Below are positions 685 to 24,665 of a stretch of 32,000 nt of DNA, piece after piece (position 1 is the stretch's first letter; each line of letters begins with the position of its first letter). Under the pieces are notes generated by a model. The model was given only the letters and a program-made list of their open reading frames with translations, made no database searches and was not told where the DNA came from. Both the position numbers and the translations under genes were made by a program. The stretch covers positions 360,001 through 392,000 of the forward strand of contig NZ_LN885086.1 of NCBI RefSeq assembly GCF_001458695.1, written 5' to 3'. Source of the DNA: Candidatus Nitrospira inopinata. Lineage in GTDB: Bacteria > Nitrospirota > Nitrospiria > Nitrospirales > Nitrospiraceae.

Positions 685-1218
685 TTAGGCCAGAACGGGA
701 GGAGGAGCACGGGAGAGGCGATCAGAAAGAAGGGAAACAAAGCGCGGCTTATCCTCCGTAGGTCTTCCGAAACGGACTTCGCAATCAGGAGCCGGTGATC
801 CCGGCTGTGCAACGGCCATCGCATGGACAAGTGGAGAGGCAACCAGCCGCCGATCCGACGAGTCGCCGAGCATCGTGAGGGCGAACTCGGCATGCCGGCC
901 TCCTCTGTGAAAGAGATGGTCCAGATCTTCAACAGCGCCGTCGGGCTCGTCCTGAGTCTGGTCACTGTCCCCGTCACGATCACCTTCACACTCAAGGTCC
1001 GGAGACCAGATGGTATGGACGAGGCTACCGTGGGCATGCCCTTCTTTCCCGTGCTGGTGATCCGCTTCGGGATGCACGTGAACGAAGGGAACCGCCAGCA
1101 CCCAGAGTCCGACCCACGCGAGCACCATCAAGCGAAAGAGCCGATTGTTCCGGAACCGAGATCGCATGATGAGGACACCATACCACCGCCGAGCATTCGC
1201 GACAATCGTGTCCCTCAC
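685..1218 (-). CDS. His-rich membrane-anchored hypothetical protein, translationally coupled to copA
   Basis: The GTG start at 1218 overlaps the copA stop (GTGA overlap) and is preceded by a GGTGGAG Shine-Dalgarno. There is one hydrophobic helix ([17 protein letters not shown]) followed by [18 protein letters not shown]. The C-terminus reads [10 protein letters not shown]. An alternative ATG lies at 1167. Confidence 0.5.
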
Positions 1219-3812
1219 AGCTCCACCCTTCGCAACCGCAGCGCGTTCGTGATGACAGAGACCGAGCTGAACGTCATGGCGGCGCTCGCGAACATGGGAC
1301 TGAGCAGCAACCCCACGAACGGATAGAGGACGCCCGCCGCCACCGGCACCCCCACCATGTTGTAGGCGAAGGCGAAGAAGAGATTCTGCCTGATGTTCCG
1401 CATCGTCGCCTTGCTCAAGCGCATGGCCCGCACGAGGGCGCGGAGATCGCCTTTGATCAAGGTCATTCCGGCGCTTTCAATAGCGATTCCCGCCCCGGTC
1501 CCCATCGCGATGCCCACGTCGGCCAGGGCCAGCGCCGGCGCATCGTTGACGCCGTCGCCGGCCATCGCCACGACGCGTCCCTCCGCCTTGAGCTTGGCCA
1601 CCACCGCTCCTTTTTGATCGGGCAGCACGCCGGCGATGACTTGGTCCAAGCCAAGTTTCCTGCCGACCGACTCGGCGGTCTGCCGATGGTCACCCGTCAA
1701 CATGATCAGCTTGAGCCCCTCCGCCTTCAGCATGGCGACCGCCTCCGCCGTCGAAGGCTTGATCGGATCTGACACACCGAGCAATCCCGCCGGTTTGCCA
1801 TCGACGGCCACAAAGACGACCGTGTGCCCGTCCTGCCTCAGCTTCTCCGCCTCGGCGTCAAGTCGCTCCAGCTCGTTCGACTCCTCTTCGACCACTTCGC
1901 GAAGGAACGACAACGTTCCGACCGCCACCCTTTTACCCTCGACGATGCCGGACACCCCCTTGCCGGTCAGCGACCGGAACTGCGTGCCCGTCGTCAATCG
2001 AATGCCCCGGCTTTTTGCACCAGCCACCATCGCCTCGGCCAGCGGATGTTCGCTGCCCTGCTCAAGACTTGCTGCCAGACGCAGCAACTCCTGCTCGGAC
2101 CAGGGTTCGACCAGGTGAATCGCCGTGAGTGCCGGCTTCCCTTGAGTCAACGTACCGGTCTTGTCGAAGACGACCGTATCGACCCGGCCCAAGGTCTCAA
2201 GCGCCTCGGCCTTTTTGACGAGCACGCCGGCCATCGCGCCACGGCCGGTCGCGACCATGATCGACATCGGTGTCGCCAAGCCCAAGGCGCAGGGACAGGC
2301 GATGATCAATACCGCGACGGCATTGACCAGCGCATGCGCCAGCTTGGGTCCCGGCCCCCACAGGGCCCAGGCAATGGCCGTCAAGAGAGCGACCCCGACC
2401 ACCAGCGGAACGAAATAGGCCGCCACGCGATCCGCGATTCGTTGAATCGGGGCTCGGCTTCGCTGCGCCTCGCCGACAACTTGCACGATCCTGGCGAGCA
2501 AGGTCTCGCGCCCTACCCGCTCGGCGCGCATCAGCACACTGCCACTTCCGTTGATCGTTCCTGCCGTCACCGGACTGCCTGCTTCCTTGGCGACGGGTAT
2601 CGGTTCACCGGTGATCATCGACTCATCGATCGCGGTCATGCCCTCCAGCACGACTCCATCAACCGGCACGCGATCACCCGGACGGACCCGCAGCCGATCG
2701 CCGACTCGGACTCGATCGATCGGCACGTCTTCCTCATGACCATCGTCCCGCACGAGCCGCGCGGTGGCGGGCGCCAGCTTCAACAGCGCCCTGATGGCGG
2801 ACCCGGTTTGCGCGCGCGCGCGCAGTTCCAACACCTGGCCCAGCAACACCAGCACCGTGATGACCGCACTCGCCTCGAAATAAACCGGCACGGTGCCGTC
2901 AGGTCGGTGGAATGAAGCAGGTAACAGCGTGGGCGCCAGGGTGGCCACGGCACTGTAGCCGTACGCTGCGCCAGTCCCAAGTGCGATCAAGGTAAACATA
3001 TTGGGCGAACGATTCACGATCGAGGCCCAGCCCCGCTGGAAGAACGGGGCTCCCCCCCAGAGCACGACCGGCGTCGCCAAAACGAGCTGCGCCCACTGGA
3101 GAACCGTGTTGCCCACCGCCTGCTGTAACGGCATGCCGGGAATCATGTCGGCCATCGCCAGCGCCATGACCACCATCGTGGGAACCAGGCAGCGCCACAG
3201 CCGCCGGCTCATGTCATCCAGTTCAGGATTGCCGGTCTCCTCGGCCGAGACGATCTTGGGCTCCAATGCCATCCCGCAAATCGGACAAGCTCCCGGTTTG
3301 GTCTCCAGCACCTCCGGGTCCATCGGACAGATATATTCCACGGTTCCGCCGGGCGGCGGCGCGACGATGCGGGGAGCCCGCTGGTCAGGCGGAGTCAGGT
3401 AATAGGCGGGATCGTCTCGAAATTTCGCCAAACAGCTCGTGGCGCAGAAATAGTAGGTTTTTCCTTGATAGACATGCGAGCCGGCGGCGTGATCCGGTTG
3501 AACCGTCATGCCGCAGACCGGATCGACTTCGCCCTTTGGCGGCTCCCCCTTCGGCGCCTGCATCATCGGAAGCGGCTTTCTGGCAGAAGGAGCGGCCGGA
3601 GACGGAGCTTGAGCTTGAACTTGAGATGGAGCGGCGGGAGCTGTCATCAGGATCAGCGGCTTTCGCTTCAGGGCCGCCTCGGGATCGGCGCGAAACCGTT
3701 CAAGGCAGGACCCCGAACAAAAGTAATAGGTCGTGCCCTTGTAGTCATACCGCCCCGCCGCGCGAGCGGGATCGATGGTCATGCCGCAAATGGGGTCAAT
3801 CGCCATCGTCAT
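1215..3812 (-). CDS. copA: Copper-translocating P1B-type ATPase
   Basis: 865 aa carrying the CPC motif ([12 protein letters not shown]), the phosphorylation site FDKTGTLT, and the TGD and [10 protein letters not shown] motifs. The N-terminus has two TRASH/YHS-type modules ([10 protein letters not shown]...[12 protein letters not shown] and [10 protein letters not shown]...[12 protein letters not shown]) plus YICPMDPEV...CPICGM. Confidence 0.95.
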
Positions 3813-3914
3813 GCCGTGAGGGGTGAATGGCTAGGCGTGAGAGGCAAGCAGAAACTCCGCTTCCTGTTGCCGGCATTTTGTCTTCCCCTCCGTTCACCCC
3901 TGACTCCTTACCAT

Positions 3915-4568
3915 TCACCGTTTCGCATCATTCTCCAAGATGCTCCGAATGATGGTGACCACGTTCTCCGGCGTCATGTTGACGCCATCGACCTTGATAT
4001 TGCCGTCGATCAGAATCGAAGGGGTGGATGAGACCTGGATGCGCTCGCCCCAGCGCCGTCCTTCTTCGAATGCTTGCGCCGGCTTGCCGCTGGCCAAGCC
4101 CGCTTCGAATGCCGCGACATCCAATCCCACTTCGCGGATCAACAGTTCACGAATCGACCGGTCCAGGATGCCGGTCATTTTGTCTTTGTGTATGGTCCGG
4201 AACAGGACCGCCTTCATTTCATCGCCCTTGCCCATCATCTTGGCCTGCTCGTACATGTCGAAGGCGGTCGGCAATTTCCCATGGATGACGGGGAAGCCGA
4301 CCATCGTGATCTCGATCTTGTCGCCGAACTCACGGCGCAACATCGGAATCGCAGTCTCTTCGAAATGGTGGCAATGGGGACAGTAGAAATCGGCGAACTC
4401 GACGATTTTGACCTTTCCCCGCTGGTGGGTGGAGGATTCGTCTTTCAAGAGTTCGTACTTCCCCTTGATATCGGGAACCGCCGCGCCCGCGCCGAGCGAC
4501 GTACCAACAACAACTGCCAGGACGGCAACCCCCATCGCTACTTTCCACATCGATCCGTTCGAAGCCAT
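3915..4568 (-). CDS. DsbA-family thiol:disulfide oxidoreductase (secreted thioredoxin fold)
   Basis: N-terminal signal/anchor and the active site FADFYCPHCHHFEE (CPHC). It lies directly upstream of copA on the same strand. Confidence 0.85.
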   Translation of the reverse strand: MASNGSMWKVAMGVAVLAVVVGTSLGAGAAVPDIKGKYELLKDESSTHQRGKVKIVEFADFYCPHCHHFEETAIPMLRREFGDKIEITMVGFPVIHGKLPTAFDMYEQAKMMGKGDEMKAVLFRTIHKDKMTGILDRSIRELLIREVGLDVAAFEAGLASGKPAQAFEEGRRWGERIQVSSTPSILIDGNIKVDGVNMTPENVVTIIRSILENDAKR

Positions 4569-4615
4569 CGTTGCCCACTCCTTTCTGCAATCATCATAGA
4601 GATCGTATTATAGCG

Positions 4616-4629
4616 AATGCGCGCGCATT
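4616..4629. promoter_or_regulatory. Perfect 14-bp palindrome AATGCGCGCGCATT in the divergent dsbA-copA / slp intergenic region; candidate operator
   Basis: The sequence is its own reverse complement. It sits in the gap between the dsbA-like start (4568) and the likely slp start (4653). Any function is inferred. Confidence 0.3.
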
Positions 4630-4652
4630 TGGGTTTTTGTTACACTGTCTTT

Positions 4653-5198
4653 ATGAATGGACGCTGGCGAGGAAGTCTTCTGTGTCTCGTCCTGGTCTTC
4701 TCCGGTTGCGCCTCGACCGGCGAGTACACGGCACCGGCTTCGTCGCTGATTCCCTTCGTGGAAGTCGGCCGTGCTCCCGACACGTTCAAGGGACAGACCG
4801 CGACCTTCGGCGGCAAGGTCTTGGCGGCGAAACGATTGACGGAGGGAACCCGCATCGAGATCCTCCAACTGCCCCTGGACTCGTCGCTCAGGCCGACGCA
4901 TGATTTAAGCAAATCGCAAGGCCGTTTTCTCGCGATCAAAAAAGAATTTCTCGACCCCGCCACCATTCCCGCTGGCACCTTTGTCACCGTCACCGGAGAG
5001 GTGACGGGAGCCGTCACGATGCCGCTGGATGAAACCGAGTATCGCTACCTCACCCTGGCCATTGCCACCTTGCAGGTCTGGCCCGCCGAGGAGGATCGCC
5101 CGGCTCGTCTGCGCCCCTATCCCTATTACATCATGCCCGGCCCCTATTGGGGCCCCTACTGGCATCCCTATTGGTGGGGCCCGTGGCCGTACTGGTAA
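4653..5198 (+). CDS. Slp/YeaY-family outer-membrane lipoprotein
   Basis: Lipoprotein signal MNGRWRGSLLCLVLVFSGC. The core resembles E. coli Slp (GQTATFGGKV..., IEILQLPLDS..., GRFLAIKKEFLDP..., FVTVTGEV, LQVW). The ORF track starts at 4617, but the ATG at 4653 gives a normal signal peptide. Confidence 0.8.
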   Translation: MNGRWRGSLLCLVLVFSGCASTGEYTAPASSLIPFVEVGRAPDTFKGQTATFGGKVLAAKRLTEGTRIEILQLPLDSSLRPTHDLSKSQGRFLAIKKEFLDPATIPAGTFVTVTGEVTGAVTMPLDETEYRYLTLAIATLQVWPAEEDRPARLRPYPYYIMPGPYWGPYWHPYWWGPWPYW

Positions 5199-5512
5199 CG
5201 ACGATTTGTCGTTGGTCGAAGAGAGGATGTCGCTAACCCCATGCACCGAATCCGCTCCTCCCCTTATACCGCATCCTTGCTGAAAGCAGAGGGACGGAAA
5301 GGCGCCAGATCGCGCATGAAATCGAACATCTTTATCGAGTGTGACGGATCGCCACCGTGAGATTTTGTTTGCTTGACTTGGATCGACAACCTCTTCTGCA
5401 TGTCCTGAAGAAACATTGGAGGGGTGTGGGACGGGTCACGCGCGGCGCGCCTTGCGGCCCGCCGCGATGAGATTCTGCATGCGCTGAAGGTCCTGACAGG
5501 GACTCCGCGGGA

Positions 5513-5815
5513 TTACTTGGCTTTGCCCTTCGCCTTGTGCTGATGGGCCTGCTCGGCGTGCGCCAACGATTCCTCGGCGTGCTTCAGCGATTCCTTGGCA
5601 TGCTCAAGGGCCTCTTTGGCGTGGGACTCAACACTGTTCTTCACCGCTTCTTCCAGATGCTGGATAGCCTCTTTGACATGCGAAATTCCCTCTTTCGCAT
5701 GCTTGATGGTCTCTTTGACGTGACCGCCTTCGCCGGCGAGGGAGTGGCCGGCAAGACTTCCCACAAGAAGCCCGCTGATCGCGACTGTGACCAAGAACAT
5801 TCTGACTTTGCCCAT
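5513..5815 (-). CDS. smbP: Small metal-binding protein, SmbP-like (His-rich heptad repeats)
   Basis: The internal ATG at 5815 is preceded by a GGGAGG SD. A signal peptide (MGKVRMFLVTVAISGLLVGSLAGHSLA) is followed by repeats HVKETIK HAKEGIS HVKEAIQ HLEEAVK ... HAKEALE HAKESLK HAEESLA HAEQAHQH. This matches the style of Nitrosomonas europaea SmbP. Confidence 0.7.
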   Translation of the reverse strand: MGKVRMFLVTVAISGLLVGSLAGHSLAGEGGHVKETIKHAKEGISHVKEAIQHLEEAVKNSVESHAKEALEHAKESLKHAEESLAHAEQAHQHKAKGKAK

Positions 5816-6013
5816 ACATACCTCCCTAATTATTTGTATTGATGACGGCCGCATTGCGCACTTTGCCTCTAGGTACATGCACGAAGAACGGCTGTCAAGG
5901 AACGCCTTCGTGTCCGCCCGCGGCCGCCGCATCAGACAGGACGAAAATATGGAAGGGCTGAGATTCAGCACGCTTCATCCTGACGCCTGATCAGGCAACT
6001 TGCTATCCTTCGC

Positions 6014-6316
6014 CTACTTCATCACTTTGGCATGGCAATGCCAGCCGTCGCCTTTGACGTTATTGACCGCCTCCACAAGCTGTTTCGACGTCGTCTTGTC
6101 TCCCTCAACCGTCACGACCGCATGACCTTTCATGCTCTTGAAGTCGACCGCCTTGACGCCGGACACCTTTTTCACCGCCGATTCGACTTCGCCCAAATAC
6201 AAATCGCAATAACTCCCCCCGAGCATCAATGTAATCCTCTGCTCCGCCGCCTGGGCAAGTTCGAGAACACCGAGCAAGACGCCCGTCGCAATGATCGCGG
6301 TCACGATCCGCTTCAT
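6014..6316 (-). CDS. Periplasmic heavy-metal-associated (HMA)-like small protein
   Basis: Strong SD (GAGGAGG) and a signal peptide ending AQA/AE. The length and pattern fit an HMA fold (VESAVKKVSGVKAVDF...AVVTVEGD...LVEAVNN). The GMTCxxC loop is replaced by GGSYCDLYLGE, and the C-terminus is GDGWHCHAKVMK. Confidence 0.55.
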   Translation of the reverse strand: MKRIVTAIIATGVLLGVLELAQAAEQRITLMLGGSYCDLYLGEVESAVKKVSGVKAVDFKSMKGHAVVTVEGDKTTSKQLVEAVNNVKGDGWHCHAKVMK

Positions 6317-6390
6317 GATCCCCTCCTCAAAAATTTAATCTCACATCGATGATTGACATTCCACAGGCCGCATGAGGCCGATGAACGTTC

Positions 6391-6433
6391 TTAAAAAAGG
6401 GAGGGAGTCGGAGGGAGGCCGCCTCCGACTCCC
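6391..6433 (-). terminator. Rho-independent terminator after the HTH gene
   Basis: On the minus strand: a perfect 12-bp stem GGGAGTCGGAGG / CCTCCGACTCCC (6403-6414 and 6422-6433), a 7-nt loop, then TCCCTTTTTT (the A-run at 6393-6398 on the plus strand). Confidence 0.65.
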
Positions 6434-6483
6434 CACGCAGGCCTAGAGGGAGGGAGGTGCCGACCCTCCAGACCTGAACTTTT

Positions 6484-6771
6484 CTAGCGTGATGATCGCG
6501 TATTCCGTCTGTTGCCTTGCGAACGACTCTTTCTTTCCGTTATCGGCCCGTTTCGCTCGATTCCGTCGCCATCGGTTATCTTGGCTTTTCCAATCAGATC
6601 ATCCACTGAAGCCCGAAAAACCCTGAGGCTACTCCCTCCTATCTTCGTCGCACGCAATCGGCCTTCGTCTATCCATCGATAGATCGTCCACTTGCTGACA
6701 TTGAGCAATCTGGCCGCCTCCTGAACTCTGAGCAACACCGGTTCCACACTGCACCCAACTCGACCAGGCAA
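6484..6771 (-). CDS. Excisionase-family / MerR-superfamily helix-turn-helix DNA-binding protein
   Basis: LLRVQEAARLLNVSKWTIYRWIDEGRLRATKIGGSSLRVFRASVDDLI is the typical excisionase-type HTH. The start is uncertain: TTG at 6771 has no SD, and GTG at 6747 or 6738 is equally plausible. Confidence 0.7.
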   Translation of the reverse strand: MPGRVGCSVEPVLLRVQEAARLLNVSKWTIYRWIDEGRLRATKIGGSSLRVFRASVDDLIGKAKITDGDGIERNGPITERKSRSQGNRRNTRSSR

Positions 6772-6774
6772 AGG

Positions 6775-6801
6775 GGGAGAGCGCCCAACCAGCGCTCTCC
6801 C
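6775..6801 (-). promoter_or_regulatory. Perfect 10-bp stem-loop just 5' of the HTH gene (weak terminator or leader structure)
   Basis: GGGAGAGCGC (6775-6784) pairs with GCGCTCTCCC (6792-6801) around a 7-nt loop. On the minus strand it is followed only by CCCTTTGCC, so there is no proper U-tract. Confidence 0.3.
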
Positions 6802-6997
6802 TAATCGGAACGGTGGAAGGAGGCCACCAACAGCGCCCGTTCCGAGGACCTATGAATCAGAATCCCTCTTTGCCCGACTTTGACCGCATTCAGAGCGACA
6901 TCAGCAATGACGACAGACCGATCAACTGATGAATGACTTTCTCGCGCCCGCCGGAGGCATCACACAAGAGCGAGAGCTGATTCAGCCATCCTATGGT

Positions 6998-7327
6998 CTA
7001 AAGAGAGGGAGGAGCGCGAGAATGCAGGGGTGATGAATGACAAGTCGAATCCATCTGATGGAAAGACTCGCCTGGCTCATACGCGATGGGAGCATACGAG
7101 GTGAACGTCGCCTGAGCGGGGGCGTCCGACTGAGAGGAGACCTGACACGCCCAGGAGCACAGGGATGAATGAGTCGCGTTGTGATCATGATGTTCATGAC
7201 CGGCGGCGTTCGCCGAAGTGTCGAGCGCAGGAGCGCACAAGGCCATCAAGCACACCAGTCCCACATAGGTCACGGCGGTCAAACTCGCGATGACCATGTG
7301 GCACCGGGTGTAACGGAAGAGCCGCAT
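6998..7327 (-). CDS. His/Cys-rich secreted or membrane-anchored hypothetical protein, distant paralog of 685-1218
   Basis: AGGAG SD 6 nt before the ATG at 7327. The N-terminus is hydrophobic, followed by the cluster GHEHHDHNATH. The C-terminus HSRAPPSL echoes [10 protein letters not shown] of ORF 685-1218. Confidence 0.5.
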   Translation of the reverse strand: MRLFRYTRCHMVIASLTAVTYVGLVCLMALCAPALDTSANAAGHEHHDHNATHSSLCSWACQVSSQSDAPAQATFTSYAPIAYEPGESFHQMDSTCHSSPLHSRAPPSL

Positions 7328-7439: not shown

Positions 7440-8963
7440 TTACCATGCACGACATTGCGTCGCCGACGGACGTCGATTGTTCCGTGATAATGCCCTGAAG
7501 CGGTTTCGTCGAGACGCACGTTTGAGGAATGTCGCCTCGGCCTTTACCGGCGCCTCGGCACGCCTTCTCTGCCCCTTCAGAAGATCAAGCAGCTCACCGC
7601 GCTGAACCGACTTCGCGAACGCCATTCTCGAAAGACTTTCGATGGCCCGACCCGTCGATTCCGACGAATGCCGCACCTTGAGCTTGAACCCGACGCCTTT
7701 GATGGCGACAATCTCGCAACCGTGATCCGTGTCGCGGCTCAGCAGCTTCCGAAGGGCGTGAATATGAACGTCCAGGGTGTGTTCGCCGATGGCGAACCCA
7801 GGCCCCCAGACCAGCCCGATCAGATCCTCGCGCGCGAACACCTTGGAGGGCGCGCTCATAAACACCTGCAGGATCGCAAACTGTTTGGCGGAAAGATGGA
7901 CGGTCTCCGATCCGATCGTCAGCTCGTGGGTGTCGGCATCCAATTGAACGTCGCCTATCTGATACACGCCTCGACGCGCCATATCATGCCCCGCTCTTCG
8001 GCAATAGGCGCCGATCATCGCCAGAAACAGCTTATGACCGTCTCGGCATGAATACACGCCGTCCGCTCCCCGCTCCAAATCGGCCACGATGTCCTCGTCG
8101 TTTTCCATCACTTCGTGGGAAATCAATGTCAAGATGGGAACGTGCGCGATCGCCTGCTCCGTGCGAAGCATGTCCCAGTCCGCGACTCGCCGATCGACCA
8201 ACACCAACGCCGGCGGGCGATGACGAGCCCACTCTAAGAGCTCCGCCACGGAAGTCGCCGCGCGGCATTGATAGCCGGCCCGCTGCAATTGTTCCTCAAG
8301 ATCCGACGAGAAGGCCCGATCGGACGATAAGAGAAAGACCTCGCACGAGCGGGTGACTGGCGACGGGCAAGTCGAAGCCCCGGACTCAAAGTCCTGACGC
8401 CTGACAGGTCCCTGTCGACGCACCACGATCCCGACGATTCCACAGAGACCGGATCCGAACAGAACGACCGCGGCCGGAATAGGCACCTGTTCCGTCGTCG
8501 TCTTACGAGGCGCTCCTCCACGATCGCCGGCCATCATGATAAACGGCTGCATCAGTGCAACCGTGCGCCCCCATGAAAGGTCCAAGAATACGCTTCCGAA
8601 AATGTTTCCCGATTCTTCAGAGACACTGTCCCCAGGATCACCGGAGGCCAATGGAATGGTCAGTAACGAATTCAACGATGCTCCCACCCGTCCGATTCCA
8701 GCAAAAAGCGGCATCACTGGAAGCGGGAGGGGCTGGCCGGTTACGGTTAAGAGAGCAGCCCCCGATGGAGCCTCGATTCCATTGCCGTTGACGCCCATCG
8801 CGCCACGAGAGAAATCCAAAGCGCCGACAACCGCAGCATGCCCTCCCGTGGGATCAAGCCCCATGCCCGATACCCAACACAGGGCGAACATGATGACCGT
8901 GACAGCGAACTTCCCACTCCGCCTCGCAATCACCGCCACATGTCCACCTCGTCTTTCTTTCAT
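7440..8963 (-). CDS. Membrane-anchored regulator: signal peptide, ectodomain, internal PEP-CTERM-like TM segment, degenerate receiver domain, OmpR/PhoB winged-helix domain, Arg-rich tail
   Basis: The winged helix reads YQIGDVQLDADTHELTIGSETVHLSAKQFAILQVFMSAPSKVFAREDLIGLVWGP...TLDVHIHALRKLL...IVAIKGVGFKLKV. The receiver-like region runs EVFLLSSDRAF...PALVLVDRRVADWD...PILTLIS...GADGVYSCRD. The internal segment VPIPAAVVLFGSGLCGIVGIVVRRQ lies at nt 8412-8486. The ORF-track start at 9179 overlaps the upstream gene. I use the ATG at 8963; GTG at 8939 has a better SD (GAGGTGG). Confidence 0.75.
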   Translation of the reverse strand: MKERRGGHVAVIARRSGKFAVTVIMFALCWVSGMGLDPTGGHAAVVGALDFSRGAMGVNGNGIEAPSGAALLTVTGQPLPLPVMPLFAGIGRVGASLNSLLTIPLASGDPGDSVSEESGNIFGSVFLDLSWGRTVALMQPFIMMAGDRGGAPRKTTTEQVPIPAAVVLFGSGLCGIVGIVVRRQGPVRRQDFESGASTCPSPVTRSCEVFLLSSDRAFSSDLEEQLQRAGYQCRAATSVAELLEWARHRPPALVLVDRRVADWDMLRTEQAIAHVPILTLISHEVMENDEDIVADLERGADGVYSCRDGHKLFLAMIGAYCRRAGHDMARRGVYQIGDVQLDADTHELTIGSETVHLSAKQFAILQVFMSAPSKVFAREDLIGLVWGPGFAIGEHTLDVHIHALRKLLSRDTDHGCEIVAIKGVGFKLKVRHSSESTGRAIESLSRMAFAKSVQRGELLDLLKGQRRRAEAPVKAEATFLKRASRRNRFRALSRNNRRPSATQCRAW

Positions 8964-8981: not shown

Positions 8982-9019
8982 AGAAAAAAGTTCGGAGAGG
9001 CGCGTCGGCCTCTCCGAAC
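8982..9019 (-). terminator. Strong Rho-independent terminator between the PEP-CTERM gene and the regulator gene
   Basis: On the minus strand: a perfect 12-bp stem GTTCGGAGAGGC / GCCTCTCCGAAC (8990-9001 and 9008-9019), the loop CGACGC, then TTTTTT immediately (8984-8989). Confidence 0.75.
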
Positions 9020-9052
9020 CGGAGATCTGCTTGCTCGGCAGACCAGGCAGGT

Positions 9053-9613
9053 CTAGGACACTTTTTTCATCCGACGGGACAACCCGGCCAACCCAACCAG
9101 ACCGGTACCGAACAAATACAGCGCCGCCGGAACTGGGATAGGCGGCGGCGGCGGCGGAGTAGACCCGTATGAACCCCACATCGTCAAAGTGTAACTTCCC
9201 CCACCAGAACGGGCAAGTCCCGATGGATGAAGATGGTAGTCACCAGGAGGCATTAAGATGCCTAAATCCGCCAATGGGAAGTCCGTAAAAGAGGGTGCCG
9301 CCCCTCCCCCTGGAACCTGCCTATCGGTGTTATTCTCAAAAATCGAGGCGCCGAACCAGGATGTCAGGTTGGTAGTGCTAGAGGTCATATTAAAATGGGT
9401 GAATGGTCCCAAATCAAAATTAACTGTATCCAAGAAGAAGCCAGCCGCTGGATTGGCGGTGTACACAACCGGGTTTGTGGCATCTCCATACCCCGGGCCA
9501 AAGGGCAAGCTTGGATTGTACGGCACGGCCTGCACGTTCGCCGCGCCGCTTAGCACTGCAGCAGCCGCCACCAGCCCCGCTACTGCCATCTTAAGCCGAG
9601 AAACGCTTCTCAT
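9053..9613 (-). CDS. PEP-CTERM sorting-domain protein (secreted cargo)
   Basis: AGGAG SD and a signal peptide (AANVQA/VP). The C-terminus is STPPPPPPIPVPAALYLFGTGLVGLAGLSRRMKKVS, i.e. a PEP-type motif, a TM helix and a basic cluster. Confidence 0.85.
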   Translation of the reverse strand: MRSVSRLKMAVAGLVAAAAVLSGAANVQAVPYNPSLPFGPGYGDATNPVVYTANPAAGFFLDTVNFDLGPFTHFNMTSSTTNLTSWFGASIFENNTDRQVPGGGAAPSFTDFPLADLGILMPPGDYHLHPSGLARSGGGSYTLTMWGSYGSTPPPPPPIPVPAALYLFGTGLVGLAGLSRRMKKVS

Positions 9614-9932
9614 TGCCCCACTCCTTTCGTTAAATGACCCTTGTAAATGCCCTTCTCACGCGACTCATACGCCCCTCTTACCTTTTACCTGACAACCTGT
9701 CTTTCACTCTCCGCGCGCTCAAAACTCCCTGACAGCCTCTTCCACCAAGCCGCGCTCTTGGCTGTCCGCATGCCCTTGTTATACGGATCACCAGCCTCAG
9801 AATCTACCCGCCGCTGCACCAGATGCCTATGGCTGAAACGGAAAATTCTCTTAGGCTCTTGCCTTGGTGCATTCGCCGGAGCAAGCGCGCGGCAATCGTA
9901 GCAGGAACCGGTCATCGCCGGCTACGGACACA

Positions 9933-9962
9933 CGCACCAGGTGCACCAGATGTGACAAAAAG
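9933..9962 (-). promoter_or_regulatory. Conserved upstream element, copy A; sigma-54-type -24/-12 promoter candidate
   Basis: The minus strand reads TTTTTGTCACATC-TGGTGCA-CCTG-GTGCG, with the GG and GC spaced as in TGGCACG-N4-TTGC. It is almost identical to copy B at 11342-11371 and lies about 320 nt upstream of the start at 9613. Confidence 0.4.
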
Positions 9963-10215: not shown

Positions 10216-11232
10216 TTACAGCATCGTTTTCCGGCGGGCTAATCCAGCCAGCCCGACCAACCCGACTCCGAACAGATACACCGCCGCCGGTACCGGAACT
10301 GGACTCATATTTCCATTGACCGACATACGAATAAACATGTTCCTGGCGCGACGCAGAATCCCATAATCCGCCGGGTAAGATGTTCCATTGCAGGAGACTG
10401 GGTTACCATAATCGCAGGCCGTATAGCCGGCGGCTGGATTCCCAACTCCCTGCTGCACAAGATCAAACAGCTCTTGCAGATCGCTCAGACTCGTTCCGCC
10501 GATCACCAGCGAATAGGTGCCCGGACCGAGCGCGCCCGTCCAGCTTGCCACATTGTCCAGTGCATCCCCGTTGTGGCCATCCCCGACGGAAATACCGGTA
10601 TACGTCATGGTGCTTACCATGCCGGCATTGTTGCCCATGGTGACAGACCCATCCGCCCGATACACGCCCCAGTTCGGTCCGCCGGCATCGACCGCGCCGC
10701 CGCCATTGGCGGTGATTTCATCCATGGCGTCAAAAAATGGAGACCAGGTCGCAAAAGCCGGTTGAGTGGATAGATAATTCAGCATGGCCGGGCTGTTGAG
10801 CGTCGCAATCTGAGCCGGCGTCAATCCATTCGTGTCTCCCACTCCGTCATGCGATCCCTGCGGCACCTGCCCCATAAAAAGGGAGAATCCTGGATTGAGA
10901 ATCGACGCGCCATTGGCGTTTGGCATTCCAACCACTGTAATGCTTACAAGAGAGGGTGCCGTTAGCGTAAAGAAGCGAAAGCGGTTGTTGTGACTGTCAG
11001 CCAGCGTGTCAATGGTCGCGGTGCGATTGACGCCGTTGTTGCTCATGCCGGAGAGCCATCCCGCATTGCTGCTGACGGTGGGATTGAAGCCGGCCGTCCC
11101 CAAGGGCCCCCAGGTATTCGTGCTCTGGTCATACAACGACGTGCCATACCCGACATGGGCTGATGCCACGCCGGTTGTCAACATGAGAGCCATTATCGAA
11201 ACGGCTCCAAGGATTGTCGTGCACTTCTTCAT
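10216..11232 (-). CDS. PEP-CTERM sorting-domain protein (secreted cargo, 338 aa)
   Basis: GGAGG SD and a signal peptide (TTGVASA/HV). The C-terminus is MSPVPVPAAVYLFGVGLVGLAGLARRKTML. Confidence 0.85.
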   Translation of the reverse strand: MKKCTTILGAVSIMALMLTTGVASAHVGYGTSLYDQSTNTWGPLGTAGFNPTVSSNAGWLSGMSNNGVNRTATIDTLADSHNNRFRFFTLTAPSLVSITVVGMPNANGASILNPGFSLFMGQVPQGSHDGVGDTNGLTPAQIATLNSPAMLNYLSTQPAFATWSPFFDAMDEITANGGGAVDAGGPNWGVYRADGSVTMGNNAGMVSTMTYTGISVGDGHNGDALDNVASWTGALGPGTYSLVIGGTSLSDLQELFDLVQQGVGNPAAGYTACDYGNPVSCNGTSYPADYGILRRARNMFIRMSVNGNMSPVPVPAAVYLFGVGLVGLAGLARRKTML

Positions 11233-11341
11233 TCGAAACCTCCTTGTTTATGGATTACACGGCTTAGACATGAACCAAACCCTAACGTACTGACCAATAA
11301 GCGCGTTATAGCAAAGACGTACAATGCCCGATACAGACCGG

Positions 11342-11371
11342 TGCACCACATGCACCATCTGTGACAAAAAA
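11342..11371 (-). promoter_or_regulatory. Conserved upstream element, copy B; sigma-54-type -24/-12 promoter candidate
   Basis: The minus strand reads TTTTTTGTCACAGA-TGGTGCA-TGTG-GTGCA, about 110 nt upstream of the start at 11232. It shares GCACCA-N3-GCACCA-N3-GTGACAAAAA with copy A. Confidence 0.4.
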
Positions 11372-11416: not shown

Positions 11417-13015
11417 GTGATTCGTGCTACAAAGACGCGCATGTCTCGTGTTGAAACGAGCTCTTCACGGCGGACGGAGCGAAACAACGCCGTGCCCGAT
11501 CGCGCCACGCACCGGCTTCTGCTGTATGGGACCGTGACATTGACCGGCGGCGCGGTGATGGTGCTTGAGCTGCTCGGCACCCGCATCATCGGGCCGTTTT
11601 ACGGTGTGAGCCTCTACGTGTGGGCATCGCTCATCGCCGTGACCATGATCGCGCTGGCTCTCGGCTACTTTATCGGCGGGTATGCAGCCGACCGATTTCC
11701 GTCTGTGCGCTTGAGCCACGTCCTGCTTGCCGCGGCCCTCGGCACGGCCGTCATCCCGCTGCTCACCGGTCCGGTCCTTCGCCTGACCGATTCCTTGGGA
11801 CTGCGCGGCGGCGCCTTTACCAGCGCGCTGTTGCTCTTTACCTTTCCGCTGACCGCGCTCGCCATGGTGGGCCCCTATGTGATCAAGCGCGCAACCCGTG
11901 ATCTCGCCGGCGTGGGCACCGTGGCCGGCTCGGTCTATGCCGTGAGCACGGTGGGCAGCGTGGCCGGCACGTTGCTGCTGGGGTTTTATCTCCTGCCGCT
12001 GTTCGGAACGAAAACGATCCTCCTGTCCGTGAGCCTGCTCCTGGCCTCGCTCTCGGCCGTGGTGTCCTGGCAGGAACGAGCGCGGACAGCGGCGCTAGCG
12101 CCCACCGCCATGGCGGTGTTCGCCGCCTTCGGCCTCTGGTCAGCCACCGGTTTTGCGGGATCAGGGAAATCGCTGGAAGGGTTTGCCGTGCTCTCGGAGG
12201 CGGAAAGTCTCTACGGGTGGGTGCGTGTGGTGGACGACGAGCGATACGGCATCCGCTTGATGCTCTCCGACGCCTCGGTCATCAGCGCGGTGGACAAGAA
12301 ATGGGATCGCAGCGTGCTAGGCTATCAACAAATTTTGGGGTTGCTCCCCAACTTCAGGCCGCGCGCGACACAGGCCTTGCTCATCGGCCTCGGCGGGGGA
12401 CACGTCGCGCGTGATTTGAAATCCCAAGGTCTCGAGACCGACACGATTGAAATCGATCCGGCGGTTGCCGACGCAGCCCAACGGTTCTTTTCTTTCAAAC
12501 CGACCGGCCGGTTTCTGATCGGCGATGCGCGGTACGAGATCAAACGGCTGGACCGGCGTTACGACATCATTATCCATGACTGTTTCACAGGTGGAACGGA
12601 ACCGATCCACCTGCTGACCCAGGAAATGTTGGGTCATCTCCGGGAGCTGCTCACCGAGGAGGGGCTGCTCGCGTTGAATTATGTCGGTTTTCGAACGGGA
12701 GAAGGCTCCGAAGCGGTCGCGGCCGTCTATCGAACCCTCAAAAGCCTCTTCCCACACGTCAGGACCTTCACGACCGACCCCACAGACTTTACCGACTTTG
12801 TGTTGCTCGCCTCGGGCGCGCCCCTCGATCTTGAACGCTACCGAGACGACCCCCGAGTCTCTTGGCTCGTGCAACACGAACATCACCTGCAGGATACCGG
12901 CGGCTTCATCATCACCGACGACTACAACCCGCTCGAACGGCTCCAGACGCGCAAAGCCGAGACCTACCGCAAGATCTTCCTGGAACGGATCGCGTTCGAT
13001 CTGTTGGTGCGGTAA
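11417..13015 (+). CDS. Fused MFS-like membrane domain / spermidine-synthase-like protein
   Basis: The N-terminal ~230 aa form multiple hydrophobic helices. The C-terminal half has a class-I methyltransferase / spermidine-synthase fold (ALLIGLGGGHVARDL, DTIEIDPAV, YDIIIHDCF). The start is GTG. Confidence 0.75.
   Translation: MIRATKTRMSRVETSSSRRTERNNAVPDRATHRLLLYGTVTLTGGAVMVLELLGTRIIGPFYGVSLYVWASLIAVTMIALALGYFIGGYAADRFPSVRLSHVLLAAALGTAVIPLLTGPVLRLTDSLGLRGGAFTSALLLFTFPLTALAMVGPYVIKRATRDLAGVGTVAGSVYAVSTVGSVAGTLLLGFYLLPLFGTKTILLSVSLLLASLSAVVSWQERARTAALAPTAMAVFAAFGLWSATGFAGSGKSLEGFAVLSEAESLYGWVRVVDDERYGIRLMLSDASVISAVDKKWDRSVLGYQQILGLLPNFRPRATQALLIGLGGGHVARDLKSQGLETDTIEIDPAVADAAQRFFSFKPTGRFLIGDARYEIKRLDRRYDIIIHDCFTGGTEPIHLLTQEMLGHLRELLTEEGLLALNYVGFRTGEGSEAVAAVYRTLKSLFPHVRTFTTDPTDFTDFVLLASGAPLDLERYRDDPRVSWLVQHEHHLQDTGGFIITDDYNPLERLQTRKAETYRKIFLERIAFDLLVR
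12983..13011 (+). repeat. Left copy of a 29-bp perfect direct repeat (right copy at 14385-14413)
   Basis: GAACGGATCGCGTTCGATCTGTTGGTGCG occurs identically at both positions. The left copy forms the last codons of the spermidine-synthase-like gene. Confidence 0.9.
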
Positions 13016-13467: not shown

Positions 13468-13496
13468 CATGGCGATTTGAATGAGAGGAGAGCCTC

Positions 13497-14485: not shown

Positions 14486-15901
14486 TCATCGTCGCCGCGA
14501 GGTTATCGACCGCCACCAGGCCATCGGCGTGCGCAGCCACGTCATCGGCTGCGATCGAGAACCTATGCCTGCGGGAGATCGTCGGTCTGGATCATCTCCA
14601 TCGACTCGATCGGCGATATCACGAAACAACGGATCTACGCGATGAATCAGACGGTACTCTTCCTGCGCTTCCCGGAACCTTCCCATCTTGTCGAGGACTT
14701 GCCCGAGCACGTAGCGAACGTTGAGAAGGTCCTCCATCTTGGCGCCATTGACCGCAAGGGCTCGTCGGAACGAGGCCGCCGCTTCTTCGAGTCGCCCGGC
14801 CGCCCGCAAACACATCCCCTGCTGCACCCTGGCCAAAAACCGAAAGGCGGGATCTTGCTCCGCCGCCTGGAATTTCTTAATGGCTTCCTCATACCGCCCG
14901 GACTGTTTGAGATCCAGACCGTCTTGATACGGATCCAGCCCCAGATTTTCTCGCGCGACATGCTCGGCGGATGGAACAGTCCGAGTCTCGACCGTTCGAT
15001 TCGTGGAAGGAGGAGGCGCCGGCGAAATTTGCGATTCGCCCGCGACCTGATCGGGGTCGAGCTGAATGGTCTGAGGATCCACGTCGGACGGCAGGATGCC
15101 TCCCCTGGCGCGATCCGACGCCACTTGCAGGACGATCGCCGCCGTAATCCGCTCCTTGCCGTCGCCGAAGCCGTAGGCGAGAGACAAATCACAAAGCTGG
15201 TTGATCAGCCGAGGAATGCCGCCGCTGAGCCGACACACCAGAGAACAGGCGTAGTCGGTGAAAAGATGGGGATCGCCGCCGACGATCGCCAGCCGATGAC
15301 GGATGTAGGCTCGGACATCGGCTTCGCTCAGCGGCTCCAAGGCGTAATCCACCGTGATCCGTTGCGCGAATTGCCGCATATCCGGACGGGTCAGCATGGC
15401 CCGCAGCGTGGGTTGTCCGGCCAGCACGATCTGCAACCCGATCTGACGGCCGTCGTTGAGATTGGACAGAAGCCGAAGGTCTTCGAGCATCTGCAGGTTG
15501 AGATTTTGGGCTTCATCGACGATGAGCAGCACTTGCCGGCCGGCCGAAAAGGTGTGTTTCAAATAAGACGTGATTCGGCGGAACTGACTGACGGTGTCGA
15601 GGCCGGAGACGTCAAGTCCGAAGGCGTCGGCGACCCACGGCAAGAGGCTGGTGTCGTTCGGATGGGTCGTGCCGATCACGCCGACGGCAAACCGCCCGCG
15701 ATGTTCCTCCAACATCTTGTTGAGCAGAGTCGTCTTGCCGGTTCCGGGCTCTCCCGTAAGGACAGTGAAGACCGCGCGATTGAGGAGACCGTACTCCAGG
15801 ACATTCAGCCCCGGCTTATGCCGCCCGCTGAGGAAGAGAAATTCCGGATCGGGCAACAGAGAGAAGGGCTTCGCGCGAAGCCGGTAAAACGATTCGTACA
15901 T
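14486..15901 (-). CDS. XrtA/PEP-CTERM system-associated AAA ATPase (ExeA-like) with a C-terminal TPR-like extension
   Basis: MYESFYRLRAKPFSLLPDPEFLFLS..., Walker A GEPGTGKTTL and Walker B LLIVDEAQNL are present. Its position after the tyrosine-kinase gene matches XrtA loci. The C-terminal ~150 aa look TPR-like. Confidence 0.8.
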   Translation of the reverse strand: MYESFYRLRAKPFSLLPDPEFLFLSGRHKPGLNVLEYGLLNRAVFTVLTGEPGTGKTTLLNKMLEEHRGRFAVGVIGTTHPNDTSLLPWVADAFGLDVSGLDTVSQFRRITSYLKHTFSAGRQVLLIVDEAQNLNLQMLEDLRLLSNLNDGRQIGLQIVLAGQPTLRAMLTRPDMRQFAQRITVDYALEPLSEADVRAYIRHRLAIVGGDPHLFTDYACSLVCRLSGGIPRLINQLCDLSLAYGFGDGKERITAAIVLQVASDRARGGILPSDVDPQTIQLDPDQVAGESQISPAPPPSTNRTVETRTVPSAEHVARENLGLDPYQDGLDLKQSGRYEEAIKKFQAAEQDPAFRFLARVQQGMCLRAAGRLEEAAASFRRALAVNGAKMEDLLNVRYVLGQVLDKMGRFREAQEEYRLIHRVDPLFRDIADRVDGDDPDRRSPAGIGSRSQPMTWLRTPMAWWRSITSRRR

Positions 15902-15907
15902 GGTGAC

Positions 15908-16750
15908 CTATCTTGCCCATTTCCGATCGGCCGACACCGCCCGCTTGACTTTCGACATGCTGAGTTGATCGCGCCCGGACTTGTTCAGAACCGTCCCCAG
16001 CACGGCGGTTCCCCCCTTTAACACGTGCAGAGTCCGTTGGAGATCCGGCTCGGACGTGTTGCCGTCCTCCACCACGAGAAGCAGCGCGTCGAGCTGAGGG
16101 CCGAAGGCCAGCACGTCCGCGCGATCGAGCACCGGCGGCAGGTCGAAAATCACGATCCGGGACTCATACCGATGCTTCAATTCCTTTCCAAGCGCCGTCA
16201 TGCGCGGGGAAGCCAAAATTTCGGCGGACTGTTCCGTTCCCCGCCCTCCCGGCAGCACGACCAGACGGCCGAGACCGGGATAGAGCAGCATTTCCTCAAC
16301 CGGCAGCCCGTCCAGCAAATACTCCGTCAAGCCCGGTTTCCGCTCCAACTCCAAGACTTCATGGATCCTTGGCGCCCGCAAATCCGCGTCGACCAGCAAC
16401 ACCGTTTGATTGGGTTCGGTGGCGATGGCGATGGCCAAATTGATCGCCGTCAACGTCTTGCCCGCGCCGTCCCGCGGGCTGGTGACTCCCAGCATGTTCC
16501 AGCCGTTCTCCCGCAAGCGATGCAACACCTGGGTTCTGAGGATTTTGTACGCGTCCGCAAAGGGTGAATCGTGCCGGGTGAGGATTCGCCGCCGCTGCAG
16601 CACGTCCTCATGGATGACGACGGAGCGGGTCCGCGAATACAGAATGGTCGGCGGCGCGGCGGTCGGAGGCTGATCGGGCCGAGGCGGCACCCGCGCCGAA
16701 TGTTGCTGAGCCTTGAACCGATCCATTGCGCTCTGCAAATGTTCCATCAT
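15908..16750 (-). CDS. Exopolysaccharide/PEP-CTERM-locus tyrosine autokinase-like P-loop ATPase (BY-kinase family)
   Basis: Walker A TSPRDGAGKT, Walker A' LLVDADLRAPRIH and Walker B IVIFDLPPV are present. It follows the chain-length determinant gene. Confidence 0.8.
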   Translation of the reverse strand: MMEHLQSAMDRFKAQQHSARVPPRPDQPPTAAPPTILYSRTRSVVIHEDVLQRRRILTRHDSPFADAYKILRTQVLHRLRENGWNMLGVTSPRDGAGKTLTAINLAIAIATEPNQTVLLVDADLRAPRIHEVLELERKPGLTEYLLDGLPVEEMLLYPGLGRLVVLPGGRGTEQSAEILASPRMTALGKELKHRYESRIVIFDLPPVLDRADVLAFGPQLDALLLVVEDGNTSEPDLQRTLHVLKGGTAVLGTVLNKSGRDQLSMSKVKRAVSADRKWAR

Positions 16751-16776
16751 GATTCCGCCGTCCTTTCGCTTTCCGC

Positions 16777-18540: not shown

Positions 18541-18558
18541 ATCCCGGGTTTGGTCATT

Positions 18559-19767: not shown

Positions 19768-19821
19768 GCCGATTCCCCCGCTCCTTGCCGCCGCGCGAGG
19801 GGAGCATCGCTCTCTCATAGG

Positions 19822-20457
19822 TTAGGGAACCACCACGACATCGCCGCGCTGAAGCACGATGTTCTGCTCAAGCCCCCTCCCGTTTCGCACGTCTCCATAC
19901 CGGAACGGATAGACTCTCTGCTCTCCCTTGTCTCTCCTGATGACCTTGATGTCGTTTTCCTTGGCGAAGGGGGTCAGACCTCCGGCCAGGCTGAGGGCCT
20001 GGAGCACGTCGGTATAGTGACCGACCAGGAATTCTCCCGGCCTGGCGACGCGCCCGGTGACATAAATTTTATTGCTCATGATCTTCGTCACCATGACCGT
20101 CACGTGCGGATTCGGCACGAATTTGTTCAGGCGCGCGACCAGATCCTGTCGCACGTCCTCGACCGTCCGGCCGGCAGCCATGATGTCGCCGACCAGCGGA
20201 AACGAGATCATGCCGTCCGGGCGCACGACGACTTCCTGCGTGAGCTGCTCATCCCGCCACACCGAGATCTTGAGCGTATCCTCGGGCCCCAGCAAGTACG
20301 CCGCGTCCGCCACGAGACCCGGATCGGTCTCGCCAGCAACCTGAATCGGTTGAGGAGCCAAAAAATCCGGCACGTAGTCGGTCACGGAGGCGCAGTGCTG
20401 GAGGGTTGGCGCCAGCAAGACGCAGAGAACAGACCGTGTCAATTTCGATTGTTTCAT
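19822..20457 (-). CDS. Polysaccharide export protein (Wza-like Poly_export + SLBB; XrtA-locus subtype)
   Basis: YLLGPEDTLKISVWRDEQLTQEVVVRPDGMISFPLVGDIMAAGRTVEDVRQDLVARL is the Poly_export signature. An SLBB-like segment follows (YVTGRVARPGEF...). Confidence 0.85.
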   Translation of the reverse strand: MKQSKLTRSVLCVLLAPTLQHCASVTDYVPDFLAPQPIQVAGETDPGLVADAAYLLGPEDTLKISVWRDEQLTQEVVVRPDGMISFPLVGDIMAAGRTVEDVRQDLVARLNKFVPNPHVTVMVTKIMSNKIYVTGRVARPGEFLVGHYTDVLQALSLAGGLTPFAKENDIKVIRRDKGEQRVYPFRYGDVRNGRGLEQNIVLQRGDVVVVP

Positions 20458-20491
20458 CTTTTCCCTATTCCTTCATTCTCCTTGCCTTACT

Positions 20492-22882: not shown

Positions 22883-22903
22883 CGCCGTTCTCCTCGCCCG
22901 GCG

Positions 22904-24529: not shown

Positions 24530-24637
24530 GAGCCATCAACCTATCACGGCCGGAACGGGCCCGACATCCTACTTTGGGAGTGTAGCAGTATAGCGAAAGA
24601 GCGATTCAGCAGGAACAACGCCAGGTTCAAACTGATG

Positions 24638-24652: not shown

Positions 24653-24665
24653 TAACGTCTCCGTA

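Follow-up and report, generated by a model that had tools for sequence, protein, structure and literature searches.

Introduction

Membrane-bound one-component regulators of the ToxR, CadC and TcpP kind consist of an OmpR-type winged helix, one transmembrane (TM) helix and a periplasmic domain, work without a kinase and in several cases are under regulated proteolysis; HP1043, ChxR and the GlnR-type orphans are atypical response regulators of the OmpR family that act independently of phosphorylation. We know of no atypical OmpR-family regulator with an exported N-terminal domain and a TM tether. Exosortases are widespread, and to our knowledge cleavage by a bacterial exosortase has had no biochemical demonstration, and the cleavage site, the acceptor and the regulation of these enzymes are still largely inferred. 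In the present work, one gene was analysed in a 32,000-nucleotide stretch of Candidatus Nitrospira inopinata (contig NZ_LN885086.1 of assembly GCF_001458695.1, positions 360,001 to 392,000 of the forward strand; the whole stretch is called the window below). It encodes a transcription factor that carries, in its interior, a segment (the tag) resembling the PEP-CTERM sorting signals of two neighbouring genes, cargo A and cargo B.

PEP-CTERM signals were described by Haft et al. (PMC1569441) with a median of 3 trailing residues, 87% having fewer than 10; a few copies occur at atypical positions and were suggested to be maybe non-functional, an EpsH homolog occurs wherever PEP-CTERM domains occur, and a sigma-54 motif lies upstream of proteobacterial PEP-CTERM genes. 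A centrally located signal is cleaved in one archaeal case, the PGF tripartite signal of the Haloferax volcanii fusion HVO_0405, which is processed by archaeosortase ArtA (PMC7157517). In Streptococcus gordonii, the SGO_1180/1181 two-component circuit senses a sortase-cleaved LPXTG C-peptide (PMC11326707).

Results

Domain order and reading frame

The regulator gene (Table 1) encodes a Nitrospira-specific, membrane-tethered transcription factor of the OmpR family that is unlikely to be phosphorylated. Its open reading frame (ORF) offers two starts, an ATG at 8963 giving 507 amino acids (aa) (7440..8963, minus strand; ORF list and sequence) and a GTG at 8939. The NCBI call and that of a second assembly both start at the GTG and give 499 aa, 100% identical to the NCBI entry 'response regulator transcription factor' of Candidatus Nitrospira inopinata. 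Because a Shine-Dalgarno-like GAGGTGG lies upstream of the GTG and nothing similar precedes the ATG, the 499-aa form is more likely, and the regulator probably has this length and not the 508 aa of an earlier note on this DNA. The coordinates of all parts were verified by translating sub-ranges, by which the domain order and the position of the tag agreed exactly with that note. A35 and A36 are conserved in at least 90% of the family and form an A-x-A motif followed by A after the hydrophobic segment 12-28, and the signal peptide is predicted to be cut after G-H-A, before A36. With a signal peptide, a single TM helix and a positive-inside cluster, the N-terminal part would be exported, the tag would cross the inner membrane once and the chain from RRQGPVRRQ onward would be cytoplasmic. 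In an AlphaFold2 (AF2) model built on 60 homologs, the receiver fold and the winged helix reached a predicted local distance difference test (pLDDT) score above 90 and one TM helix was placed at 156-175, while the ectodomain (pLDDT <50 in the window protein) and the C-terminal tail were of low confidence. The tag is the sole tether between the exported domain and the cytoplasmic DNA-binding module, as the earlier note had proposed.

Of the domain assignments made there, the winged helix held (Trans_reg_C, PF00486, 64.3 bits, cut-off 26.2), whereas the receiver scored below its threshold (Response_reg, PF00072, 18 bits, cut-off 30.2) and the PEP-CTERM model gave no match. In an alignment with E. 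coli PhoB, the positions of E9/D10, T83 and K105 were occupied by S/S, I and C, and D53 alone was kept; the same pocket losses were found in all long forms and in the short paralogs described below. Control by a kinase through phosphorylation is unlikely because the receiver keeps the phospho-acceptor Asp only. In four Pfam-annotated loci, the genes called up to 10 kb to the left and right of the regulator included no histidine kinase, nor did the window ORFs scanned, and with a pseudo-receiver and no neighbouring kinase the N-terminal module is therefore the only visible input. Ordinary OmpR-family proteins stop at the winged helix; the additional 77-aa tail is weakly conserved apart from an LKRxSRRxR-like patch.

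Origin of the N-terminal half

A stand-alone 204-aa PEP-CTERM protein from a related locus, terminating in ...PVPIPAAVGLYATGLFGLGSWTWWRRRAGLPAAT, was ~40% identical over ~185 aa (E ~1e-35) to the N-terminal halves of the family members P0012 and P0014, in an alignment that spans signal peptide, ectodomain and TM helix. When a hidden Markov model (HMM) of the N-terminal half was searched exhaustively against 1.84 billion representative proteins, 72 proteins were found at E<1e-10, mostly of 190-230 aa, aligned from end to end and terminating a few residues past the basic cluster. One of them passed the VPLPA-CTERM model (27.0 bits, cut-off 25.35), and another aligned to the C-terminal 100 residues of the model of the flocculation protein PepA (45.6 bits). 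The longer ectodomain of P0014 was folded as an all-beta domain (core pLDDT 80-87), and a search with the ectodomain fold gave no significant match in the PDB. Judged by these alignments, the regulator arose by fusion of a whole PEP-CTERM surface protein of the VPxPA variant to a pseudo-receiver and winged helix. Signal peptide, beta-rich ectodomain and tripartite sorting signal all come from the surface protein.

PEP-CTERM signals of a further non-terminal class were seen in P0165, P0191, P0204, P0210, P0124 and P0199, in which an internal PEP-CTERM signal leads directly into another signal peptide and another ectodomain, and the chain ends in a PEP-CTERM signal again. P0165 was found on 12 contigs from four sources, so that at least some such double proteins are probably real.

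The internal sorting signal

All three elements of a sorting signal are present in the regulator (VPIP / AAVVLFGSGLCGIVGIVV / RRQGPVRRQ), followed by 324 residues after the RR cluster, so that the signal does not stand at the extreme C-terminus. Several PEP-CTERM family models matched the regulator weakly and only with their C-terminal ends (floc_PepA 19.8 bits). Since the generic signal models failed on the segment (scores are given in the Discussion), a lineage-specific HMM was constructed with the true C-terminal tails (66 unique sequences) of cargo proteins from Nitrospira loci and searched against 5765 ORFs of these loci. The internal segment scored 39.9 bits (E 1.2e-11), real cargo tails 43-62 bits and unrelated ORFs, membrane proteins such as major facilitator superfamily (MFS) transporters and P-type ATPases included, at most 10 bits. 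The resemblance to the signals of the neighbours that the earlier note had pointed out thus goes far beyond chance, and by its score on this profile the segment is a close relative of a local signal dialect that the generic model describes poorly.

Conservation was determined per region as mean top-residue frequency in 89 full-length sequences and amounted to 0.28 in the ectodomain, 0.35 in the linker, 0.52 in the tag, 0.60 in the receiver and 0.75 in the winged helix, the highest of the family. P155 is invariant, and L160, F161, G167 and G170 are conserved in at least 90% of the family. In the clade of the window protein, the 30-residue stretch VP[ILV]PAAxxLFGSGLCGIVGxVVRRQGPxKRQD is near-constant in proteins with an overall identity of only ~45%. 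Codon differences within the tag comprised 900 synonymous and 663 nonsynonymous changes (nonsynonymous/synonymous ratio 0.74), and for the 25 codons on each side the crude ratios were 10.7 and 6.2; purifying selection is much stronger on the tag than on the sequence beside it. Cys166 of the TM helix (GLCG) could serve disulfide-linked dimerisation, acylation or metal sensing.

Distribution of the fusion

A protein search returned 99 homologs, almost all 440-560 aa in length, and in every full-length homolog the regulator was preceded by a signal peptide, an ectodomain and a single internal hydrophobic segment. Related loci were scanned with one genome per species, which gave 59 loci (55 from Nitrospira or Nitrospiraceae). 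Of the 59, about 40 carried the long fused form, each of them in an assembly of Nitrospira or Nitrospiraceae, and some genomes had two or three paralogs; the earlier note had considered that homologs might always occur as two genes, and this was not found. In the remaining loci, N. moscoviensis included, only a receiver-like domain with winged helix (~236 aa) was encoded. The halves thus also exist as separate genes, as the short paralogs and the stand-alone N-terminal-half proteins show, yet the fusion has been inherited stably. That a frameshift or a lost stop codon in assembly or annotation merged a PEP-CTERM gene with a regulator gene has next to no probability: the fused frame is continuous in the closed N. 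inopinata genome, in the second assembly and in about 40 independent contigs of metagenome-assembled genomes, and the sequence is conserved across the junction (RRQGPxKRQD), by which such an artefact is effectively ruled out. No support for it was found, the over-extended ORF calls in some homologs touching the 5' end only.

The short paralogs (loci L046-L059, e.g. L058:9989-10684 of N. moscoviensis) are pseudo-receivers without the acidic pair, the Thr and the Lys. Several lie directly downstream of CopA-like ATPases, a position that hints at an ancestral regulator in metal homeostasis.

Gene neighbourhood

Both cargo genes encode genuine PEP-CTERM/VPLPA-CTERM proteins, whose tails, scanned alone, reached 19.1 and 20.6 bits with TIGR02595 (cut-off 16) and 25.4 and 28.2 bits with TIGR03370 (cut-off 25.35). 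By synteny in more than 30 loci, cargo B lies almost always directly upstream of the regulator gene, from which it is separated in the window by a strong terminator. The conserved order runs from the surface side (often an XrtA-like exopolysaccharide (EPS) locus ending in a TIGR03015-type ATPase, then an MFS/spermidine-synthase gene on the opposite strand, cargo A, cargo B and sometimes a third cargo gene) through the regulator to the His-rich 109-aa protein, HTH_17, HMA/MerP-like, SmbP-like, Slp, DsbA-like and CopA genes, which places the regulator at the junction of surface-protein genes and copper-handling genes. The MFS/spermidine-synthase gene is divergent from the cargo genes and keeps its position in most long-form loci. 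The EPS locus adjoins the cargo/regulator cluster in the window and in at least 10 other loci and encodes an ATPase, a tyrosine kinase, a chain-length determinant, an outer-membrane protein, an export protein, glycosyltransferases and a PrsT homolog (TIGR02917, 326.6 bits, cut-off 312.2).

In cargo A and 12 homologs (13 proteins), the signal peptide ends in ASA and is followed by HVGYG, with His as the predicted mature N-terminus. Histidine-brace copper sites are characterised by a His at the N-terminus, and because of this residue and the copper-gene neighbourhood cargo A is suggested to be a surface copper-binding protein; sequence searches gave it no relative in Pfam or the PDB. Plasmid-borne relatives of the EPS ATPase and the PrsT-like tetratricopeptide repeat protein were found almost only on Rhodobacterales EPS plasmids with VPLPA-CTERM proteins (exosortase XrtD on the L067 plasmid; a rhomboid protease gene and no annotated exosortase on the L065 plasmid), and VPLPA-CTERM is the model on which the Nitrospira tails score best. 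No convincing gene was seen in the stretch 13016-14485, which separates the MFS/spermidine-synthase gene from the EPS ATPase; an ORF at 13394-14017 (207 aa) had no family match and an implausible composition and is probably spurious, and its DNA is conserved in related loci. To the left of the window (L068) lie a CzcB/ACR_tran heavy-metal resistance-nodulation-division pump, a restriction-modification pair and an integrase. Scanning the window for Rfam families and for tRNAs gave no match.

The 29-nucleotide repeats to which the earlier note had drawn attention are real, but their extent was too short: they are part of a conserved ~45-nucleotide element, of which the window holds two copies. 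In ~1 Mb of Nitrospira loci, 18 of 22 matches to the extended motif preceded cargo A or B in the right orientation; the element is conserved in the related loci L005-L037 and is followed by 9-nucleotide tandem repeats. Its conserved core, TTGTCACAT-TG-TGCA, reads TGTCAC-N5-TTGCA and fits the sigma-54 -24/-12 layout TGGCAC-N5-TTGCA except for GT in place of GG. In this it is reminiscent of the sigma-54 motif described by Haft et al. for proteobacterial PEP-CTERM genes.

Table 1. Coordinates of the regulator gene, its parts and neighbouring features in the window
Feature	Position	Strand	Basis or remark
Regulator gene	7440..8939	minus	499 aa from GTG 8939; stop codon 7440-7442
Signal peptide (aa 1-35)	8835..8939	minus	hydrophobic segment 12-28; AF2 helix 9-26
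Ectodomain (aa 36-150)	8490..8834	minus	shortened, weakly conserved copy of the all-beta ectodomain of stand-alone PEP-CTERM proteins
Internal PEP-CTERM/VPLPA-like sorting signal VPIPAAVVLFGSGLCGIVGIVVRRQ	8412..8486	minus	sole TM helix of the mature protein
Codon of Cys166 in the TM helix (GLCG)	8439-8441	minus	
Cytoplasmic juxtamembrane linker (GPVRRQDFESGAS...)	8343..8411	minus	weakly conserved except RRQGPxKRQD; pLDDT <50 at 176-195
Pseudo-receiver domain	7995..8342	minus	AF2 (beta-alpha)5 fold, pLDDT >95
OmpR/PhoB-type winged-helix DNA-binding domain	7674..7967	minus	PF00486; AF2 pLDDT ~90
77-aa Arg-rich C-terminal tail	7443..7673	minus	translation; predicted disordered, pLDDT <50
Intrinsic terminator	8989..9020	minus	13-bp stem, 8 GC pairs, then TTTTTCTGG
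PEP-CTERM cargo gene B (186 aa)	9053..9613	minus	tail alone passes TIGR02595 and TIGR03370
~45-nucleotide promoter-region element (TTTTTGTCACATCTGGTGCACCTGGTGC...)	9917..9961	minus	upstream of cargo B; repeat family D2
PEP-CTERM cargo gene A (338 aa)	10216..11232	minus	tail scores and synteny
Second copy of the ~45-nucleotide element	11326..11370	minus	upstream of cargo A, in the intergenic region between it and the divergent MFS/spermidine-synthase gene
Fused MFS/spermidine-synthase gene	11417..13015	plus	NF037959, 207.6 bits (cut-off 40); start codon uncertain
XrtA/XrtD-like exopolysaccharide locus	~14486..27356	minus	TIGR03015, TIGR03018, TIGR03007, TIGR03016 and TIGR03027 matches
Downstream metal-handling neighbourhood	1215..7327		family scans; same order in many loci
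His-rich 109-aa protein (HEHHDH)	6998-7327		
HTH_17 (MerR-like) protein	6484-6771		
Periplasmic HMA/MerP-like protein	6014-6316		
SmbP-like His-rich protein	5513-5971		PF16785, sub-threshold
Slp	4617-5198		
DsbA-like protein	3915-4568		
CopA with YHS/HMBD domains	1215-3812		

Discussion

In the mechanism proposed here, the exosortase-type machinery serving the neighbouring cargo would still recognise the tag. During sorting, the protein would be cut at the outer face of the membrane and lose its ectodomain, and a TM-anchored regulator stub would remain in a different state, from which it could be released by site-2 intramembrane proteolysis or be changed in dimerisation or stability, so that transcription would respond to how much the sorting pathway handles or is able to handle. 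Likely targets would be the PEP-CTERM cargo genes next to the regulator and/or the copper-handling genes that run in the same direction, both sets being guesses. Continued handling of the tag by the sorting machinery, with a change of state in the tethered regulator once the ectodomain is removed, appears quite possible if short of probable. In its favour are the fused frame kept throughout the family, the N-terminal half that is a complete PEP-CTERM protein, the score of the tag on the cargo profile, the selection on the tag, the N-terminal module as the only visible input, and the position beside two cargo genes and an EPS locus. The more far-reaching proposal, that an exosortase acts as the site-1 protease of a tethered transcription factor and that the stub, once released or re-set, provides a direct transcriptional read-out of surface-protein sorting, is rather unlikely. 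As a whole, exosortase cleavage is plausible but unproven. It is a reasonable mechanism because there are two experimental precedents: HVO_0405 with ArtA shows that enzymes of this superfamily can cut a signal that is not C-terminal (PMC7157517), and the S. gordonii circuit shows that sorting is monitored by cells through the remnant left in the membrane (PMC11326707).

Several observations weigh against this mechanism. The generic signal models, by which the earlier note had proposed to judge the segment, do not recognise it (no match with TIGR02595 or PF07589; 14.7 bits with TIGR03370, VPLPA-CTERM, cut-off 25.35). Tyr or Trp precedes LF in 53 of 65 cargo tails and in 4 of 43 regulators, and the GLxG motif contains Cys in 23 of 43 regulators but in none of the 65 cargo tails; with such regulator-specific changes, processing may be altered or absent. 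The tag of the more distant half of the family has drifted to PSPSSALLFVPALVGLLGVLSRE (PxxPxxPSSxLLFxPxLxGLLGVxxRE) and lost the double Arg, so that about half of the family scores only 5-14 bits on the cargo profile with the architecture kept. The ectodomain of the window protein is truncated (~45 residues shorter than in P0012 and P0014 by alignment) and predicted to be disordered. No exosortase gene was found in the window, in the 10 kb beyond each end or in the 59 related loci, where ~1 Mb was screened for multi-TM ORFs with a CSG...NxxR motif and by tblastn with XrtD, the query being the annotated VPLPA-CTERM-specific XrtD from an EPS locus on a Rhodobacter plasmid, similar to the locus in Nitrospira; two other plasmid EPS regions contained no reference exosortase. 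A protein search with XrtD listed 120 matches, all XrtD-type relatives, among which those named by organism were proteobacterial (mostly Rhodobacterales) and none was from Nitrospira; because only proteobacterial names appear among the matches listed, this search is uninformative on Nitrospira. An exosortase elsewhere in the N. inopinata genome is likely, as expected from the published correlation only. Cleavage on the outer side is not enough to free the regulator: since the TM helix stays in place, release needs a second step such as a site-2 protease, and otherwise the stub would act while tethered. No protease gene was found linked to the regulator locus. The upstream elements have more in common with a variant -24/-12 promoter than with an operator of the OmpR type, which as a lead from sequence would call for a sigma-54 activator and not for an OmpR-type protein. 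Finally, the read-out of EPS export envisaged in the earlier note is only one possible input because the copper-handling genes are as constant as the cargo genes.

The main rival is a one-component sensor of the ToxR/CadC kind with inverted topology, in which the tag is an inherited anchor or dimerisation helix and always stays intact. A cue from the periplasm or envelope, copper perhaps, would be sensed by the ectodomain or by the conserved Cys in the membrane, and the signal would pass through the helix to the pseudo-receiver and winged helix, which act on DNA while tethered. We consider it doubtful but a serious candidate. The most constant neighbours are metal and copper genes (HMA/MerP-like, SmbP-like, His-rich, DsbA-like and CopA), and the closest unfused paralogs (~236 aa) stand beside CopA-like ATPases in several Nitrospira genomes including N. 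moscoviensis. The architecture kept by the distant clade with a tag unlike cargo tails and the TM Cys confined to regulators agree with such a sensor, and the GxxxG-like small-residue patterns could explain conservation of the tag through helix packing. A plain anchor, however, is rarely near-invariant over 25 residues in proteins of ~45% overall identity, and the Pro-x-Pro motif before the helix is conserved although helix packing does not require it. For a sensor of a ligand it is also odd that the ectodomain is the least conserved part and is truncated and predicted to be disordered in the window protein, and no metal-binding motif was recognised in it.

The remaining explanations were rated less likely than this rival, as was the assembly or annotation artefact. 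An uncleaved decoy or occupancy sensor, whose variant tag would compete with cargo for the substrate site of the exosortase and so report enzyme load, is improbable: the tag is strongly conserved and cargo-like (39.9 bits) yet carries conserved regulator-specific deviations next to the LFG core, as a decoy might, but the idea is purely inferential, no exosortase gene was located in the regions searched, we know of no precedent for such behaviour, and the sole tested internal signal of the superfamily (HVO_0405) is cleaved. Slightly poorer still are the prospects of an evolutionary relic, an accidental fusion whose N-terminal half merely localises the protein or is neutral. The two halves exist as separate genes in the same lineage, the H. 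volcanii fusion is strain-specific and described as unstable (PMC7157517), and rare non-terminal copies of PEP-CTERM are perhaps non-functional (PMC1569441); a relic is hard to square with a fusion kept across a genus-level radiation down to ~32% identity, with purifying selection on the tag and with paralogous copies retained within single genomes.

If cleavage is true, the proposed exosortase-dependent processing would amount to a new signalling logic. The large cytoplasmic domain behind the tag would make the protein a natural, easily scored size-shift reporter of processing, as HVO_0405 was for archaeosortase A. If processing controls the regulator, envelope biogenesis would be wired to transcription in a new way and a class of type-I topology would join the membrane-bound one-component regulators. 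Nitrite-oxidising and comammox Nitrospira, in which the family is found, are key formers of biofilms and flocs in wastewater and drinking-water systems, and a regulator between surface-protein and copper genes may have a bearing on aggregation and on the copper supply for nitrification enzymes.

Comparison with known systems

In literature searches, no description was found of a sorting signal that tethers a transcription factor, in agreement with the earlier note, which knew of no described system of this kind. With PEP-CTERM/exosortase sorting (Haft 2006; VPLPA-CTERM variant, XrtD), the Nitrospira protein shares the signal peptide, the Pro-x-Pro motif, the Gly-rich hydrophobic helix and the basic cluster, the setting with cargo genes and an XrtA/XrtD-like EPS locus, and an ectodomain homologous to stand-alone PEP-CTERM proteins and distantly to PepA. 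It differs in having 324 cytoplasmic residues after the tag compared with the usual <10, in missing the curated cut-offs, in its regulator-specific substitutions and in the absence of a located exosortase gene in the regions searched (the window, 10 kb on each side and the 59 loci). HVO_0405 is likewise a fusion with a signal of the superfamily in mid-protein, an exported N-terminal part and a cytoplasmic C-terminal part, and its cleavage depends on a sortase-like enzyme (PMC7157517). It is archaeal, has a PGF and not a PEP/VPxPA signal, is strain-specific and described as unstable, and is assigned no regulatory role in the text consulted, whereas the Nitrospira fusion is conserved in the genus and ends in a transcription factor.

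As in ToxR, CadC and TcpP, a winged helix is combined with a single TM helix and a periplasmic domain and no kinase is involved. In those proteins the winged helix is at the cytoplasmic N-terminus and there is no signal peptide, so that the Nitrospira order is reversed, and the Nitrospira protein adds a predicted cleavable signal peptide, a pseudo-receiver between membrane and winged helix and a TM helix made from a sorting signal. A degenerate phosphorylation pocket in a receiver fold followed by Trans_reg_C is shared with HP1043, ChxR and GlnR-type regulators, which differ in being soluble and cytoplasmic. Like the S. gordonii circuit, the proposed mechanism would monitor sorting through a membrane-embedded remnant of the signal; there, a free peptide, a separate histidine kinase and a non-homologous sortase are used, whereas the Nitrospira remnant would itself carry the transcription factor. 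PrsK, PrsR and PrsT of Proteobacteria are also dedicated PEP-CTERM regulators, with a PrsT homolog in the window, and the cargo genes of that system are single-gene units whose large upstream regions share an element with a -24/-12 motif (PMC1569441). PrsR, however, is a soluble sigma-54 activator of the NtrC type with a kinase, in contrast to the OmpR-type, tag-tethered Nitrospira protein without a kinase partner. The latter is not an ordinary member of the PEP-CTERM, response-regulator or ToxR-like class, as it lacks the curated score, the C-terminal position, the phosphorylation pocket and the ToxR topology; its architecture is new and relates it both to membrane-tethered one-component regulators and to exosortase substrates.

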